From the NCBI GenBank assembly GCA_963771465.1, contig CAVYTU010000013.1:416001-480000 (forward strand): a DNA stretch of 64,000 bases, written 5' to 3'. Below the pieces are notes generated by a model that worked only from the letters and a program-made list of their open reading frames with translations, was not told where the DNA came from and searched no databases. Below are positions 39,534 through 49,181 of this stretch, in pieces. Source of the DNA: an uncultured delta proteobacterium. Its GTDB lineage: Bacteria; Desulfobacterota; Binatia; UBA9968. The position numbers were made by a program, and so were the translations under genes. Positions within the stretch are counted from its first letter, which is position 1. Each line of letters starts with the position of its first letter.

Positions 39534-41107
39534 TCAATACATCGGGCTTTTCACTCGCCACTGAAACGCCGCCATGCGCGTCAGCAGCGCACCAATCAAG
39601 ACGATTACGATTGCCAGAGAGATTTCGGTCGGATCGTAGTCCAGGCGATTCGCGTACCACATCAGAAACACCGATAAGATCAATCCCCAGACCAAGGCGA
39701 TTTCCGCGTAGAACGTTCCTTTGAGAAATGGGTTGTTGGCGTCGCCGCGAATGGCGTCGCGGACGATGCCGCCGCCGGCACCTGTAAGCGCGGCGAGCAC
39801 CGGGCCCCAGAGCCACAAGGGATTTGACTTGGTCTCCACCGCAACGACCACGCCGATCACCGTGAAAGCTGCCAGGCCGAGCGCATCGAAAAAAGCAATC
39901 GCCGCATTCAAACTGATGGTGCGCGCGATCCAATCGTCGTCACCGCCGCCGTGATTTTTCGGCCCCCCAGGCCGGTCCAAGCCGGCGAGTTGAAAGCCGA
40001 GATAGCCGGTCAAAACCGTTACGATCACAGCCACCAGATAGGCCGGGTTGGCCAGCACGCCGACGGTGTCGCGGTTGACCACCAGGTCGCGCATGATGCC
40101 GCCGCCCATCGCCGGCAGCGAAGCGAGAACAAAAGCGCCGAAGAGGCTGTAGTGTCCCTGACGCGCCAAAAGAATCCCCGAGATCGCAAACGCAATCGTG
40201 CCGATGATATCGATCACCAAAAACCAGCGCTGCGCGACCGTCACCTCCAACAGGACGGGAAAAAGATATTCCCGGATGATGCGCGCGTACTGTCCGTTGG
40301 CCTTGAGCTGCTCCAAGCTGCGGTTGAATTCCTCGACCAGAGCGGGACTGGTGGTTTTCTTGCTGAACAGGACGTAAACGTCTTCCGCATAAACCGGCGG
40401 CGACAGCTCCTCGACCGCATGTTGCCAGCCGTGGCGCCACGCCAGAGTCGCTCCGACAAGCCGGTCGACGATGAACGCATCGATCCGATGACTCAACAGG
40501 TTTTCGAAGTTGGCGACGTCGTCGGCGACGGCGATCACACGCGCCTTGTGCGCCGGATCGTTGACGAAGCGCATAATGTCGGGGCCGTAGTAGAATCCGT
40601 TGACTACGCCCAAACGAAGCGACCGCTCCTCGAGTCGGCGCGCCAGCTGGCGCGCGTCTCTCAACGACCAACGCGATGCTTCACCCTTGCGCATGTACAG
40701 GACATCGGTCTCCTTGCGATAGGGCGCCGAGAAATACGCGTACACGGCGCGCTCGGGATTTTTAAACGCTCCGGCGGCAATGTCGCGCACGCCGTTGCTG
40801 ACGTCCAACTGGTGCTGCTTCCAACTTACCTCTTCATAGGAAACCTCGTAGCCCATCTGCGCGAAAACAGTTCGGATCAGTTGCACGTCCAAACCCGTCA
40901 GCCGTTTGACGTCGTGTTGGACGACCACGTGCTGGTACGGGTCCCAGGGATACCAGCCGGACTTGAGCCGTCGATCTTGCGCGACGGTGTCGGGCGGTAA
41001 CAACAGAGCTACGGTGAGATGCGCCGCGGCGAGCAGAAACACAAGCAGCCTGAGTGGAACGACAGGTATCGCAGGACCGGTCGGCGCGCCAATGGCTGTG
41101 CCATCAT
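39534..41107 (-). CDS. Fusion: family-3 periplasmic solute-binding domain + TRIC/UPF0126 membrane domains
   Basis: GWYPWDPY..TGLDV..FSAPY..RIDAFIVD then DIIGTIAFAISG..GGGIMRD and DALGLAAFTVIG..GGGIVRD; true start uncertain (possible 5' frameshift). Confidence 0.85.
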
Positions 41108-41581
41108 GGCTGCAGCCACGGTTCGCGCACGTGGTGCGAACTCCACATCCAGTTTGCTCAAGCGCTTTGTGGGCAGGCATACCAATGAAAAGTGCGGCCT
41201 GTTTTTTCGCACAGGCGCGGGCTGGATACAAGGACACCGTATGTACTTTCGCCAGTTGGCGGGGTGCGAAGAATTGCCACCGCGGTTTGATAAATCTGAT
41301 GGCTGCCCGTATTCAGCGGTTGCGGCCGCGGGAATTTGCTATCGTCGGACTCTAGCTGCAAAGGAGCGCATTCGTCATGCTGCTCGCCTTATGGCTTGTC
41401 ATGCCGCTTTGTTTCGTTCAGCCCGCACGGCCTGTCTTGAATTCAACTCCACAACTTCTTGCTTGCGATCTCTACCGTTTTGAACCGCTATTCCAAAACG
41501 ATCACGCAGTTGAATCCGGTGCGGCGGGCGTTAAGGTAAAAATAAGTCCAGCTAATGGGTTTACTTGGAAGGGAGCGGATA

Positions 41582-42136: not shown

Positions 42137-42201
42137 TCTGCACAGCTTCTTCGAATCGAAATCGGCCTGCTGTAATTGAATCTTCTTCTCACGGCTTCTT
42201 T

Positions 42202-42256
42202 CTCCGGCGCATACACCACGATGCATCCACGGCAGGCCAACTCCTTCGCTGTGGTG
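42202..42256 (-). repeat. Orphan copy (55 bp) of the 3' end of the YncE-like gene
   Basis: Encodes TAKELACRGCIVVYAPE; 3 mismatches versus the gene by manual count. Confidence 0.92.
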
Positions 42257-42409
42257 TTCGGCTTCACCTCGGCGGCGCTCTATGTGATCTGTACCTCTTG
42301 ACGTTTACAGCCCAACGGAAGTAGAAGGAGGCCATGAGCGATCAGAAACACGGCCGCATTTATGGCCGTGCCAGCGTACGACCTCAGTGCCGGAAACTGG
42401 GGAAAGACC

Positions 42410-43319: not shown

Positions 43320-43650
43320 AACTTCTACATATAGAACGAAGCGTGATGTTGTCAACCCGGAAAAATTCGCCTTTGGGCAACGGGCGAGGATCGGCGCCGC
43401 AAGTGTGCTAGGTTTTCGGCAACGTGTGAGTGCATCCTGGGTGGCAAGTCTTGAATCTTGACATTTCTAACTTCAGAATTTTGTTTCGTTCACACCGCAC
43501 AGGCACTTTGAATTGACAATTACGTCCACGCCGCCCTCCGTTGCTCACTCGCACGATTTGGGCGCGCTGACCCTCGTGCTGCTGGAGTGATGCTGCGCTC
43601 CGAAGCAAGGTCACAAGTTTGAATCTTGTCGGGTGCGCGAGACTCAAAGC

Positions 43651-43741
43651 CTTACTCGGGCGCATACACCACGATGTATCCACGGCAGGCCAACTGCTTC
43701 GCTGTCGTGGCCACATCGACGCGATTGTTGGCGAGACTCAC
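43651..43741 (-). repeat. Orphan copy (91 bp) of the 3' end of the YncE-like gene, including the stop codon
   Basis: 85/91 identical to 45659-45749 by manual count. Confidence 0.95.
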
Positions 43742-43783
43742 GATCGAGCACGCAATAAAAGACTAGATTCCTTGCGGGACGTA

Positions 43784-44350
43784 CTACTTAATTCGCTTCG
43801 GGATACGGCCCGCGTCAACCTCCGCCTTGAGTAGCGGCAGCATGCCACCGGCTGCCAATTTCTTGATGATAAAGGGCGGCATGGGCTCGAACTTGAGTTC
43901 GACGCCCGAGGAAATGTTGCTGAGGCGTCCGTTTTCGAGATCGACTTCGAGCTCATCGCCTTGTTTAACCGCATCGAGAATCCCGACAAGCTCAACTACC
44001 GGAAGCCCGCGTTCTATCGAATTTCTGAAAAAATAGGGAGACGACGTGTCGCAAAGCACGGCGGCTACGCCCGCCCCGAGGATGGACAGACAGGCATGAT
44101 CGTGATCATGTCCGAACCCCATGAATTCGCCGACGATGAAATCTCCCTTGCGAACCTTCTTGGGAAAATCGGGATCCAAATTGACCATACAGTACTTACC
44201 GATCTCCTCCGCCGTATACATGCCTTTTTCCTGCAGCCCCTGATAAGTCCGATAACCGCATATCTCCCAGTCGACGTCCAAAACACCGCGAAACACCCAG
44301 GCGTTTCCTCTCATCGGCTTCATCTGTCCCAGCTTCCCATCCTCCGTCAT
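43784..44350 (-). CDS. Divergent aconitase-family small (swivel) subunit, LeuD-like
   Basis: DPDFPKKVRKGDFIV, FFRNSIERGLPV, GDELEVDLENG; GSSRE replaced by GHDHDH. Confidence 0.85.
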   Translation of the reverse strand: MTEDGKLGQMKPMRGNAWVFRGVLDVDWEICGYRTYQGLQEKGMYTAEEIGKYCMVNLDPDFPKKVRKGDFIVGEFMGFGHDHDHACLSILGAGVAAVLCDTSSPYFFRNSIERGLPVVELVGILDAVKQGDELEVDLENGRLSNISSGVELKFEPMPPFIIKKLAAGGMLPLLKAEVDAGRIPKRIK

Positions 44351-45615
44351 AGATATTTTCTCGGATCGGTGATTTGCCCCTCCAAACACGAGGCGGCCAC
44401 GGTCATCGGGTTAGCCAAATAGATTTGCGCTTCTTCGCTGCCCATGCGCCCGGGATAGTTGGTTTGACCCGAGGCGATGCACACCTCGTCGGCCGAGAGC
44501 GGTGTATTGCCGCCCCATTCCATGCCCTCGTTGGGAATGGGCACGACACACTCGGCGTCGATGAAGGTGCCTATCAGGCCTTCATCCAGCGCCTGGCGCA
44601 GTATGTTGGTCGTGCCTGGAGTGATGTTGAGCACGACGCGCGGATGGATTTTTTTGCCCTTCAAGATCCGCGCGGCCATGCGCAAGTGTTCGATCCAGCT
44701 CCCGGCGTCGCTGCCGATGAATCCGCGGTCGATGGCGGTTCCTTCGAGTTCCTTGATCGATTTGACCAGATGGCGCTTCGGCGGCGGCACGACTTGCGGC
44801 TCCAAGCGGCTGACGTCGAGCTCAAAAACTTTGACATAATGCGCGTCCGGATCGCTTACTTGAGGCTCAAAATTCTCGTTTGTGCGCGCGCGCACGTAGT
44901 CAAGCGTCTTTTGATCCGGATTGATGATCGCCGTCCAGGCGCCGGTGAAAAGCGCCAGGGAGCAGAGCGAAAAACGCTCGCCCATACTCAAATCATTAAT
45001 AACCGGGCCCGTCCATTCGAGGGCGCCGCCACCTGCCCCCGTCGGCCCGATCCGGGATAAGAAATGTTCGAACACGTCGCGCGCGCAGGTGCCGGCAGGC
45101 AAATCTCCATTGACGACGATCTTGATGCTGCGGGGAACTCTCATCCAGGTTTTGCCGGTCATGAAATATTCGCCGCGGCCGTAAGAAAGCGTCGTGGCGA
45201 AGGCGCCCAACGCGCCGCTGCCGCTCGAATGCCCGTTGACGGCTTGTAAGTAAACCTCCCCGGGCAACGCCCAAGCCCTTTCGGCGGAAAACATGTTTTC
45301 AATGCCGGATCTACCAAGAGAATAAATATTCTCTTGGGGAATGCCGACCGCTTTGGCCCATTTTCTCGCGCGCATGCGTGAGCGCGCCGCACTGTGCGAA
45401 GCGGTGGCGCCGAGATGACCGTCGATGATTCGGATGAGCTTGGGGTCGAAAACGCCGACTTTCCATTCGGCGCAAAATTCTACGCCGCCGCGCAAGCTGC
45501 CGGCGTTTCCCATGGGCGTCGGACATCTGCTGCCAACTTCGATGTAGTCACCAGGCGAAACCTCTCCGCGGCCGGCGGCTTTGGCGAGAATTTTTTCGGT
45601 GATGGTTTTTCCCAT
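44347..45615 (-). CDS. Divergent aconitase-family large subunit, LeuC-like, lacking Fe-S cysteines
   Basis: MGKTITEKILAKA, GALGAFA, W.RVP.SI, SDPDA.Y, NYPGRMGS..YLANP.TVAAS..G.ITDPR; 4-nt overlap with small subunit. Confidence 0.88.
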   Translation of the reverse strand: MGKTITEKILAKAAGRGEVSPGDYIEVGSRCPTPMGNAGSLRGGVEFCAEWKVGVFDPKLIRIIDGHLGATASHSAARSRMRARKWAKAVGIPQENIYSLGRSGIENMFSAERAWALPGEVYLQAVNGHSSGSGALGAFATTLSYGRGEYFMTGKTWMRVPRSIKIVVNGDLPAGTCARDVFEHFLSRIGPTGAGGGALEWTGPVINDLSMGERFSLCSLALFTGAWTAIINPDQKTLDYVRARTNENFEPQVSDPDAHYVKVFELDVSRLEPQVVPPPKRHLVKSIKELEGTAIDRGFIGSDAGSWIEHLRMAARILKGKKIHPRVVLNITPGTTNILRQALDEGLIGTFIDAECVVPIPNEGMEWGGNTPLSADEVCIASGQTNYPGRMGSEEAQIYLANPMTVAASCLEGQITDPRKYL

Positions 45616-45658
45616 GCACGTCGTCCGATGCGCCCCGAGCGTATGTCGACGAGAGGAT

Positions 45659-45749
45659 CTTACTCCGGCGCATAAACCACGATGCATCCACGGCAGGCCA
45701 ACTCCTTCGCGGTCGTGGCCACATAGACGCGATTGTTGGCGAGACTCAC
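45659..45749 (-). repeat. 3' end of the YncE-like gene (source of the copies at 43651 and 42202)
   Basis: Direct sequence comparison. Confidence 0.95.
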
Positions 45750-46730
45750 CGCGAGCGAGCGCGCGCCATTGGACGTCGGGATTTGTTGCAGGCCCTTTTT
45801 CGTCTTGGTGTCGACCACCATCAAAGTTCCACCGGAGGTGGAATGGTAGTACTGGCCGAGCTTGCGATTCATCGTCGAGCCGCCGTTGCCGCCGTATCCC
45901 GCGAGAACGGTTTCCACCTTGCCGGCCGCGATATCGAAGATCGCCATGTTGCCGCCGGGCTTGGAAGACGGGCCGTGGGCGCTGCTGCAACCGAGGAAAA
46001 TGGTCGAGTCCGAGACGATGGAGAGACTATGCGGATAACAGTCGAGTTCGTGCAGCTTCACGAGCTTGCCGGTTTTGGGATCGGTCTGCGCCAGCAATCC
46101 CTTGGCGGTGTCCGCGCGCGATACCGGAATGGCTGTGTAGAACATGCGGCTTGGCGCGTGATAGGCGGAGCGCTCCAGGTTCTCGCCGGATTCCGGAATA
46201 GGGATCTTTGCGAGGATTTTGTGATCGGGCGCCGTCGAGATGAAGCTGAGGTACGGCGGATCCTCGTTCGAATTGGCGACGATGACGACGCCGATGTCTT
46301 CGCCCAAGGCCATGCCGTTGGCGCGCTTCTTTCCGCCGGTGGCGATCGTCGCCGTGATTTGGTTCGTCTTGGTGTCGACCACCTTGATCGTGCTGTCGCC
46401 GTCGCTCACCCATAGTTCGGCGCCGCCCTTGACGATCAGGACGCCATTGGGCCCCGAAGCATCGCCATCCTTCACCCGTCCGATGAAGCCCGGTATGCGC
46501 GCGACGAATTTGTCGGTCTTGGTGTCGAAGACGATGACGGATTTGTTGGTCTTGTCGGCGAGATAGCCGAGGCCCGTCGTCTGGTCGATGTCCATGATGC
46601 CGATGTCGGTGACCGGATCACCGGGAACTGAAATTTCTGCGACCTGTTTCAGGCCTGCGGCCTGCGCGGGACTAGCGGCGATCATGGCGGCGAGTGCGGC
46701 AACGATCACGGATTTGGAACGCAACATCAT
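45660..46730 (-). CDS. Secreted YncE/YVTN-like beta-propeller protein
   Basis: Signal peptide ending AQA, repeated VxDTKT blades, C-terminal CRGC; GAGGGAG RBS. Confidence 0.8.
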   Translation of the reverse strand: MMLRSKSVIVAALAAMIAASPAQAAGLKQVAEISVPGDPVTDIGIMDIDQTTGLGYLADKTNKSVIVFDTKTDKFVARIPGFIGRVKDGDASGPNGVLIVKGGAELWVSDGDSTIKVVDTKTNQITATIATGGKKRANGMALGEDIGVVIVANSNEDPPYLSFISTAPDHKILAKIPIPESGENLERSAYHAPSRMFYTAIPVSRADTAKGLLAQTDPKTGKLVKLHELDCYPHSLSIVSDSTIFLGCSSAHGPSSKPGGNMAIFDIAAGKVETVLAGYGGNGGSTMNRKLGQYYHSTSGGTLMVVDTKTKKGLQQIPTSNGARSLAVSLANNRVYVATTAKELACRGCIVVYAPE

Positions 46731-46984
46731 CGGCTCCCTCCCTGTAGCTTTTCTTGGCAAGCATTGGCGTCATATTATTACGATCGGACCCATGGACGCA
46801 TCACTACAACAGAGAGAGCCATAATGAAAGCTCTTTGAGCTACAAGCGAAAGCTGAAGTACGGCTCGTCGTAGTCGAGCCGTCGCCTCTTCTAACTGCAC
46901 ACTTCTCCGAGCTTAAGCCTCATCTCTTCCTATTCCGCCTCGGACGGGCGCGCATTGAAATCGACCCAAATATGTTTGATGTTA

Positions 46985-48091: not shown

Positions 48092-49181
48092 ATGAAAGCA
48101 TACCAGCTCTTGCTCGCCGCAATACTCGCCAGCGCAATCGGCGTCGCCGATCGAGACCTTAGCCGCGGACAAAAGCGTGGCGCAGCAGATGCCGCCCGCG
48201 GCGGTTCGATTACCCATTGAAGGCGAGTTGCCTTCTCTCGGCGGCGCGACCGGATGGCTCAACTCGCCGCCATTGACGGCCGCCGGCCTGCGCGGAAAAG
48301 TCGTCCTCATCGACGTCTGGACCTACACCTGCATCAATTGGCTACGCCAGCTTCCCTATGTCCGCGCGTGGGCCGCGAAATACAAGAATCAAGGATTGGT
48401 GGTGATCGGCGTGCACGCGCCGGAGTTCGCATTCGAGAAAAACCTCGACAACGTGCGCCGAGCCGCGAAGGACATGAGGGTCGATTATCCGATCGCGATC
48501 GATAATGACTTTGCGATATGGCGTGCTCTCAAGAACCAATATTGGCCGGCGCTCTATTTCGTCGATGCGCAGGGTAAGATTCGCCATCATCATTTCGGCG
48601 AGGGCGAATACGAACAGTCGGAGAGGATCATTCAACAATTGCTCGCCGAGGGCGGCAAGCGCCGGCATCGGTACGGAACTGGTTTCGGTCGATGGCCGTG
48701 GCGTGGAAGCTGCCGCCGATTGGGGCAGTTTAAAATCGCCGGAAAACTATCTCGGCTATGAGCGCACCGAGAACTTTGCCTCTCCCGGCGGCGCAGTGTT
48801 GGACAAGCGTCGCGTCTATGCTGTCCCCGCGCGGTTGAGACTCAATCAATGGGCCCTTTCGGGTGATTGGACGGTGCAGAAACAGGCCACTGTGTTGAAC
48901 CAGGCCAACGGGCGGATCGCCTACCGCTTTCACGCCCGCGATCTTCATCTCGTCATGGGACCGGCAGCGCGAGGAACTTCCGTGCGCTTTCGCGTGCTCA
49001 TCGATGGACAAGCCGCCGGGCGCTGCGCACGGCATTGACGTTGACGACCAAGGCAACGGCACGGTTAGCGAACAGCGGATTGTATCAGCTGATCCGACAA
49101 CCGAAGCCCATCGCCGATCGACAGTTCGAGATCGAGTTTCTCGATGCGGGCGTGGAGGCTTTTGCGTTCACGTTCGGCTGA
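48092..49181 (+). CDS. DipZ-like redoxin (thioredoxin fold + C-terminal domain), several frameshifts
   Basis: WLNSPPL..GKVVLIDVWTYTCINW, HAPEFAFEK, SPENYLG, FHARDLHLVMG, ends EAFAFTFG. Confidence 0.85.

Follow-up and report, generated by a model that had tools for sequence, protein, structure and literature searches.

Can an enzyme of the aconitase fold do without its iron-sulfur cluster? To our knowledge, a [4Fe-4S] cluster is the defining feature of the catalytic aconitase-superfamily members; in aconitase-type enzymes one of its irons binds the substrate, which also makes them sensitive to oxygen and to iron supply. The question is raised by two adjacent genes in the window analysed here, a stretch of 64,000 nucleotides from an uncultured delta proteobacterium (Desulfobacterota; Binatia; UBA9968; GenBank assembly GCA_963771465.1, contig CAVYTU010000013.1, positions 416,001 to 480,000 of the forward strand). 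The genes encode a LeuC-like large subunit (P0001) and a LeuD-like small subunit (P0002), and the three cluster cysteines of the large subunit are replaced by carboxylates, Asp303, Glu363 and Glu366 (D/E/E). From the comparison of sequences we conclude with high confidence that a conserved branch of this family, spread across several phyla, exchanged the three ligands together with five neighbouring residues in a single concerted change. The mechanism is unproven, and the pair may represent an Fe-S-free version of an aconitase/isopropylmalate-isomerase-type enzyme.

Both reading frames are open and uninterrupted on the minus strand, with calculated masses of 46 kDa for the large and 20 kDa for the small subunit. 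The first ATG of the small-subunit gene (44350-44348) overlaps the TGA of the large-subunit gene (44349-44347) as ATGA; since the small-subunit homologues, which span 95% of the query, are mostly 179-181 residues long, translation may instead begin at Met10 (ATG 44323), 24 nt past the large-subunit stop. The first-pass annotation of this DNA had called both frames intact and translationally coupled; the former holds, while coupling is plausible but uncertain, with the ATGA overlap on one side and the likely start at Met10 on the other. Under either start the two genes have the same orientation and are almost contiguous. The large subunit matches the Pfam Aconitase family PF00330 (E 2.9e-47, 162.1 bits against a cutoff of 28.7), and a Pfam search with the small subunit gave no match. 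Every NCBIfam model for LeuC/LeuD, homoaconitase or aconitase scores the pair below its curated cutoff: the best model for the large subunit reached 319.8 bits (cutoff 385) and TIGR02083 276.4 bits (cutoff 610.65), the small subunit scored 97.9 bits with TIGR02087 (LeuD/DmdB; cutoff 108.95) and 98.2 bits with TIGR02084 (cutoff 245.85), the homoaconitase HacAB models NF040615 and NF040625 gave 239.7 and 89.8 bits (cutoffs 550 and 230), and the AcnB model matched only weakly and locally (E 5e-20, 71.1 bits, cutoff 782). The closest solved relatives of P0001 are the large subunits of the Methanocaldococcus jannaschii isopropylmalate isomerase (4nqy/4kp1, E 1.4e-63) and of homoaconitase (E 2.7e-53), and that of P0002 is 3vba (E 1.4e-34). 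A canonical leuC-leuD pair with all motifs sits on a different contig of the same genome (6.9 Mb, 19 contigs), so that the present pair is not the leucine-pathway copy. The relatives are labelled in their sources as subunits of '3-isopropylmalate dehydratase', which is almost certainly wrong.

The motifs were paired by alignment to the solved M. jannaschii proteins and to the genome's own LeuC and LeuD. In the large subunit the canonical FIGSCTNG reads FIGSDAGS, the CxxC motif reads PNEGMEWG, GDSHT has become AVNGHS and SSNRNF has become SGQTNY, and the His of GxxHQ is Asn107; in the small subunit GCGSSREHA reads GFGHDHDHA and DTDRII reads DVDWEI. Thus, at the positions of the three [4Fe-4S] cysteines D303, E363 and E366 were found, and at those of the catalytic Ser and Arg of GSSRE the sequence GHDHDH. 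Among the aconitase residues whose equivalents are replaced here are, as we take it, Asp165, Ser166, His147, Glu262, Arg447, Ser642 and Arg644. These swaps and the coordinates of their codons (Table 1) had been given exactly in the first-pass annotation: GAC, GAG and GAA are read where it placed them, the alignments agree, and, in keeping with its reading, the canonical substrate and catalytic motifs are all changed relative to 4nqy/4kp1, 3vba and the genome's own LeuC/LeuD. The codons likewise bear out its count of base changes, two from Cys (TGY) to Asp and three from Cys to Glu.

The D/E/E state is shared by many relatives. In a family set made up of the query and its 120 best relatives from a collection of 5.8 billion proteins, 73 proteins are D/E/E, 46 are C/C/C and 2 are other, and mixed states do not occur. 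From the loci of relatives 77 distinct large-subunit genes were cut as a second, independent set, and here nine positions switch as a block: 31 genes have N/S-M-N-D-W-E-E-Q-T, 44 have the Cys pattern H-x-[ND]-C-[RCS]-C-C followed by T-[CTS] as the final pair, where one row has a gap, and two variants have neither pattern. Because the D/E/E pattern stands unchanged in 73 of 121 family proteins and 31 of 77 locus genes, its recurrence is far beyond chance. The query itself has the nine-position signature of this branch (N-M..N..D..W..E..E..Q-T) together with a small-subunit partner of the A/S-P-Y kind. None of D303, E363, E366, W307, Q384 and M108 changes in 69 sequences reaching down to 52% identity. 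Across 32 distinct D-type genes, variation in the three codons is confined to synonymous changes (GAC 24 and GAT 8; GAG 24 and GAA 8; GAA 22 and GAG 10), which, with no residue altered, argues that the D..ExxE triad is under purifying selection. A HMMER scan of 1.84 billion representatives returned 5502 relatives at E <= 0.001, with only two representative clusters at least 49% identical to the query; the other aligned full-length representatives are nearly all C/C/C, and signatures other than C/C/C, besides the D/E/E family and the two variants, are single rows. In a FastTree tree of 130 rows, from which four fragments of <400 residues and outgroups outside 400-440 residues had been excluded, the D/E/E rows and the two variants group in a single clade (SH-like support 99) that lies within the Cys-bearing rows, and one change on the tree is enough to account for the trait. 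By this phylogeny the D/E/E state arose once, inside a Cys-bearing family.

The gene was found in 2 of 301 sampled genomes of the same phylum, the source genome and one of the same family. The metagenome-assembled genomes (MAGs) of close relatives carry the labels Candidatus Binatia, 'delta proteobacterium' and Syntrophobacter, and among the rows whose source is named the D/E/E ones are Burkholderiales (2/2) and the Cys-type ones Chloroflexota (14/14). These data also bear on the trivial explanation that the pair is a decaying pseudogene or a product of sequencing or assembly error. A frameshifted paralogue in a related MAG would fit it, as would the 91-nt direct repeats that flank the pair and suggest a recent rearrangement. 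Against this, the frames are open, the same residues stand in 73 proteins from many assemblies, each change requires two or three bases, the codon variation is synonymous only, and a near-identical gene (99.5-100% identical, 99.5% by BLASTP) occurs in a metagenome contig. The recurrence in both sets and the codon data refute decay or error, which we regard as vanishingly unlikely, in agreement with the first-pass annotation. Nor do close homologues retain the cysteines, a possibility which that annotation had left to be checked: the acidic residues are conserved, and the Cys-bearing sisters are separate rows.

These sisters (e.g. P0035, mostly from Chloroflexota MAGs) are 52-63% identical to the query, have NGH and the GHDHDH loop as it does and have also lost the NRNF Arg. 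Many of them, like some relatives of the query, adjoin a gene for a lyase of the isocitrate lyase (ICL)/PrpB type. They differ in having C/C/C and usually a fourth Cys, in keeping H107 and R307, and in having N-A-N and not A-P-Y in the small subunit. The changes specific to the D/E/E clade in the large subunit are H107N, V108M, C303D, R307W, C363E, C366E, T384Q and C385T. The small subunits were compared as physically adjacent gene pairs on one contig (24 D-type, 10 C-type of the T-C kind and 24 others), and their sole clear switch lies at residues 104-106, with A/S/T, P/T and Y against N-A-N (Y in 23 of 24 D-type rows). The GHxH loop is present in all 24 D-type partners, as GHDHDH in 22 and GHDHHH in 2; at least 10 small subunits paired with Cys-type large subunits have the loop as well, and more distant Cys-type members retain G-H-[DGS]-H. 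Since the loop and NGH are both found in Cys-bearing sisters with adjacent genes, we conclude from this comparison that they define the whole family and predate the loss of the cluster. The first-pass annotation had read the Cys swap and the His/Asp loop as one combined rebuild, and had raised D..ExxE and GHDHDH as a possible joint clade trait. Conservation of D..ExxE within the clade stands, but the tie between the loop and the Cys loss does not, as the sisters share the loop.

We propose that the pair is a heterodimeric hydro-lyase (a hydratase, dehydratase or isomerase) with one gene for each subunit, a member of a LeuCD-type 'NGH / GHxH' family whose history ran in two steps. First, the whole family rebuilt its substrate and base residues, with D-S-H turned into N-G-H, the NRNF Arg lost and the Ser-Ser-Arg of GSSRE turned into His-Asp-His; then one branch converted its [4Fe-4S] pocket through the concerted set of changes listed above. 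The result would be an oxygen-only pocket, the new polar side chains (D, E, E, N, Q, T) all being oxygen donors. Because the pocket gains three carboxylates and loses a His and an Arg, and because the new donors are oxygen-only, a bound cation seems likely: a mononuclear, divalent hard metal (Mn, Fe(II), Mg or Ca) that may take over the Lewis-acid role of the substrate-binding iron of the cluster. A lanthanide, which the first-pass annotation had also named, finds no support in these data. Binding by D/E/E is thus suggested by charge balance and ligand type. Without a cation about three uncompensated negative charges would be buried, and with a divalent ion the net charge would be near that of the Cys-ligated cluster; the side chains of Asp and Glu, which exceed that of Cys by one and two atoms, could by our estimate reach an ion near the former cluster centre. 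H81 and H83 of the small subunit would lie at the places of the catalytic Ser and the Arg of the aconitase GSSRE and would serve as base and substrate binder. Water would be added to or removed from a substituted maleate or a cis-aconitate-type di- or tricarboxylate, and the hydroxy acid so formed would be passed on to a C-C lyase of the PrpB-like or the LeuA/HMGL-like kind. To this scheme as a whole, an aconitase-fold heterodimeric hydro-lyase with an oxygen-only pocket, a hard metal, a substrate of this kind and a product passed to a C-C lyase, we assign about an even chance of being right.

The predicted structure is in keeping with the fold and with the pairing of the subunits. The AlphaFold2 model of the large subunit (69-row alignment) has a mean predicted local distance difference test score (pLDDT) of 88.2 and a predicted template modelling score of 0.90, and shows the three-domain large-subunit fold of the aconitase superfamily; its top Foldseek match is 4kp1 (TM-score 0.91), with aconitases at 0.79-0.84. 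The complex was predicted from the large subunit, residues 10-188 of the small subunit and two Mn ions. The heterodimer reached an ipSAE interface score of 0.94 (0.93, 0.94 and 0.94 in the runs) against 0.00 for the best of three controls; at least 95% of contacts are common to the runs, and the partner pLDDT is at least 93. In calibration the mark for this score was reached by 58 of 80 solved complexes and by 2 of 110 mismatched pairs, a calibration that is only approximate here because our own alignments were used and a ligand was included. P0001 and P0002 are thus confidently predicted to pair, as expected for a LeuCD-type family, although the high score may reflect likeness to solved LeuCD-type structures or to single-chain aconitases. 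In the model the interface comprises residues 127-128 (the NG of NGH), 281, 384-385 and 387-390 of the large subunit and 25, 27-28, 79-84 and 104-106 of the small subunit, so that the co-varying positions of both subunits are predicted to meet at the interface beside the His/Asp loop.

The main rival to a metal site is that the acidic triad is structural filler. According to this, the cluster of the parent was already ligated by four cysteines and non-catalytic, its place was taken by a plug of side chains (D, E, E, N, Q, T, W, M) held by hydrogen bonds or salt bridges, perhaps including a purely structural cation, and catalysis is carried out by the His/Asp loop with H67 and H129. A fourth conserved Cys (TCNY) does stand at the position of the NRNF Arg in 43 of the 46 Cys-type rows, and it switches with the other three; the bulky W307 and M108 arrive exactly when the cluster ligands go; and the GHxH loop and NGH, present in both types, leave the presumed catalytic apparatus unchanged at the loss of the cluster. 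On the other hand, the burial of three carboxylates in a pocket that has lost a His and an Arg would argue for a cation, and the fourth Cys does not extend to the whole family, since a more distant Cys-type group (21 of 77 genes) has T-T and not T-C there. We consider the filler explanation rather unlikely, though well above negligible. If the fourth Cys is a ligand, the Cys-type sisters would in their own right be aconitase-fold proteins with a fully ligated cluster.

The substrate class proposed for the hydro-lyase comes from the neighbourhoods of relatives, which were surveyed in 88 loci. The commonest neighbour is a gene of the ICL/phosphoenolpyruvate (PEP)-mutase family, present in 30 loci (4 D-type, 21 C-type and 5 unclassified by the pattern used) and lying directly after the small-subunit gene in 22. 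One of these neighbours scores 376.4 bits with the model for the methylisocitrate lyase PrpB (cutoff 354.4), and a flavoprotein neighbour scores 558 bits with that for the tricarballylate dehydrogenase TcuA (cutoff 369). D-type loci at 59-64% identity also contain genes for ABC or TctC transporters, for distant PrpD-family proteins and for enoyl-CoA hydratases. In D-type loci of >6 kb outside the Binatia-like subclade a TcuA-like gene is found in 5 of 8 and a PrpB-like gene in 4 of 8, and in four loci of that subclade (L005, L010, L017 and L018) the gene after the pair is a LeuA-like HMGL gene. The common theme of these neighbours is a hydroxy-acid intermediate passed to a C-C lyase or synthase, which would fit an enzyme that hydrates or isomerises a substituted maleate or an acid of the cis-aconitate type and supplies a C-C lyase. 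By analogy, the PrpB-type lyases and distant PrpD-family proteins beside relatives suggest a logic of dehydration, rehydration and cleavage. A PEP mutase, and with it phosphonate biosynthesis, was also considered, prompted by a PF13714 neighbour and by LeuA-like and Iso_dh genes, and was rejected for the neighbours checked: K[RK]CGH, which we take to be the lyase-type motif, is present in 9 of 30, EDKxxxxxNS, presumably the PEP-mutase motif, in 0 of 30, and one neighbour passes the PrpB cutoff. A separate group of Cys-type loci at 47-48% identity (L072-L088) has a conserved cluster of nucleotidyl transferase, IMPDH-like, tetrapyrrole-methylase-like, flavodoxin, ICL-family, LeuA-like and Iso_dh genes, which looks biosynthetic and not catabolic.

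It could also be argued that the protein is a non-catalytic derivative of the fold, such as a ligand-binding or regulatory protein; cluster-free IRP1, which binds RNA, offers an analogy. Nearly all of the catalytic residues of aconitase, those listed above, are replaced, and the window has no metabolic partner beside the pair, neither a lyase nor a TcuA-like or LeuA-like gene. Yet many polar residues of the pocket (H67, H129, D180, R214, R281, N386 and R390) are the same without exception in both types, the pair still has the two-subunit architecture and is confidently predicted to bind, and relatives lie within catabolic clusters with a lyase, a dehydrogenase and transporters. We regard a non-catalytic role as improbable.

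Several points weigh against the proposed metal-dependent hydro-lyase, and the bare surroundings of the pair are one of them. In the closest relatives the two subunit genes stay together but the other neighbours seen in the window are not kept, and since these are uninformative the pathway context had to be drawn from relatives at 59-64% and 83-89% identity. The blocks of low confidence in the large-subunit model include the pocket loops (pLDDT 46 at 101-110, 73 at 361-370 and 80 at 301-310), and convergence of D303, E363 and E366 in three dimensions is suggested by their homology to the known cluster ligands. If the fourth Cys of the sisters is a ligand, their cluster would already have been non-catalytic and a catalytic replacement would have been unneeded. 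Within the D/E/E clade itself two proteins on a long branch, P0111 and P0120, have Glu at the first position and have lost ExxE (GTESNG, PGTD..); these may have moved still further from any metal site. Because most of the canonical carboxylate-binding and catalytic residues are gone, the chemistry could differ from hydration. Finally, the evidence for expression, described below, is weak because RNA libraries can contain DNA.

Compared with known systems, the pair shares the two-subunit architecture and the fold with the LeuCD-type isopropylmalate/citramalate isomerase of M. jannaschii (MJ0499/MJ1277; 4kp1, 4nqy, 3vba), but the cluster Cys, DSH, NRNF, GSSRE and the GxxHQ His of that enzyme are all replaced. 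Dimethylmaleate hydratase DmdAB is likewise LeuCD-type. It is an oxygen-sensitive, iron-dependent enzyme of nicotinate fermentation, and its product is cleaved by 2,3-dimethylmalate lyase, a member of the ICL/PEP-mutase family; the same pairing with an ICL-family lyase gene is seen in the 30 loci of the present family, though not beside the pair in the window. DmdAB is set apart by the score of the small subunit with TIGR02087, under its cutoff as given above, in a comparison made by model and description. AcnB and AcnD act in the methylcitrate cycle with PrpD and PrpB, and loci of relatives also contain a PrpB-type lyase and a distant PrpD-family protein; however, the present large subunit is without the tricarboxylate-binding arginines of AcnB, and its match to that protein is weak and local. 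The maleate hydratase HbzIJ of Pseudomonas alcaligenes is said to be a two-subunit, LeuCD-like hydratase of a cis-dicarboxylate. The two-subunit maleate hydratase of P. pseudoalcaligenes, reportedly 'cofactor-independent', would be the nearest possible precedent for a cluster-free member, but its subunits, reportedly of 57 and 24 kDa, do not fit the present masses. A full-text literature search, in which coverage of subscription journals and supplements is thin, gave no description of a Cys-less LeuC-like enzyme or clade, and a search of the ESM Atlas gave nothing new on the pair.

The further claim, that this would be the first catalytically active aconitase-fold enzyme without an Fe-S cluster, with a hard metal held by D303, E363 and E366 (and N107, Q384 and T385 nearby), and that, stable to oxygen and sparing of iron, it would hydrate a cis-aconitate- or alkylmaleate-type acid in a catabolic route with a TcuA-type dehydrogenase and a PrpB-type lyase, is put forward tentatively, and we think it somewhat more likely to fail than to hold. 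Whatever its fate, the Cys-bearing sisters are extant and provide a natural before-and-after pair for the replacement of an Fe-S site within one fold. Were the enzyme active and free of the cluster, these sisters would preserve the state before the switch and make the replacement of a catalytic Fe-S cluster directly testable; an active enzyme would also offer an oxygen-stable hydratase scaffold for biocatalysis and an example of iron-sparing enzyme evolution in soil bacteria.

Table 1. Coordinates of the gene pair, its replaced residues and the flanking features in the window
Feature	Position	Strand	Description
Large subunit P0001	44347-45615	minus	LeuC-like, aconitase family, D/E/E type; 422 aa
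Small subunit P0002	43784-44350	minus	LeuD-like; 188 aa (start ATG 44350) or about 179 aa (start ATG 44323)
D303	44707-44709	minus	Codon GAC (44709-44707); first cluster-Cys position; D in 73/73 D/E/E rows
E363-G-M-E366	44518-44529	minus	GAG 44529-44527 (E363) and GAA 44520-44518 (E366); CxxC cluster-Cys positions; E/E in 73/73 rows
N107-M108	45292-45297	minus	H-V in sisters with Cys; canonical GxxHQ; clade-specific
W307	44695-44697	minus	Arg in Cys-bearing sisters and in canonical LeuC (CTNGR)
Q384-T385	44461-44466	minus	T-C in sisters, canonical N-R; at predicted subunit interface
N127-G128-H129	45229-45237	minus	For canonical D-S-H; common to Cys-bearing sisters; 127-128 in predicted interface
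Small-subunit loop G80-H81-D82-H83-D84-H85	44096-44113	minus	For G-S-S-R-E-H; 79-84 in predicted interface
Small-subunit S104-P105-Y106	44033-44041	minus	Clade consensus A-P-Y; N-A-N in Cys-type partners; 104-106 in predicted interface
Upstream co-oriented gene	45660-46760	minus	366-aa beta-propeller-like protein; Pfam DUF5074, E 4.9e-7; N-terminus signal-peptide-like by eye
91-nt direct repeat, propeller-gene 3' end	45659-45749		93% identical to the copy at 43651-43741
91-nt direct repeat, just downstream of small subunit	43651-43741		Flanks the pair
Third 91-nt copy	42198-42288		68%; 1.4 kb further on; begins a spurious open reading frame

The propeller gene upstream neighbours the pair only in the closest relatives, and in one of them (L009) it lies on the other side, after and not before the pair. 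With the 91-nt repeats on both flanks, the pair may be a cassette that was gained, lost or shuffled by recombination between them. A contig from an RNA library joins 43595 to 45659 and skips the pair, a weak observation whose short side is 20 nt. In the MAG that also holds an intact pair (locus L004), a second copy lies in several frameshifted pieces (L011, 8001-10226), 67-90% identical to the large subunit of the window, and looks like a decayed paralogue. The other neighbours in the window encode YceI, MOSC, redoxin, enoyl-CoA hydratase (ECH), NmrA, a solute-binding (SBP3)-channel fusion and a CWC protein; elsewhere the genome has 10 matches to the ICL/PEP-mutase family and 5 TcuA-like matches, none of which adjoins the pair. 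A promoter scan found 0 promoter-like sites, and terminator-like sites were uninformative. Contigs of 151-533 nt from four soil metatranscriptome runs of four studies cover the large-subunit, small-subunit and upstream genes, 25 of 28 at 95% identity or more, and one record (X16 no. 10, 44232-44382) spans the junction of the subunit genes; regions without such contigs carry no meaning. At 48177-49038 on the plus strand an open reading frame of the Redoxin/AhpC type (48177-48761) overlaps, in a different frame, one with a Thioredoxin_10 C-terminal domain (48505-49038); a frameshift or sequencing error may have divided what is a single gene. On the minus strand, the frame at 39534-41237 encodes 567 residues that combine a family-3 solute-binding domain with two 'Gly_transporter' (UPF0126-type) membrane repeats, an unusual fusion.

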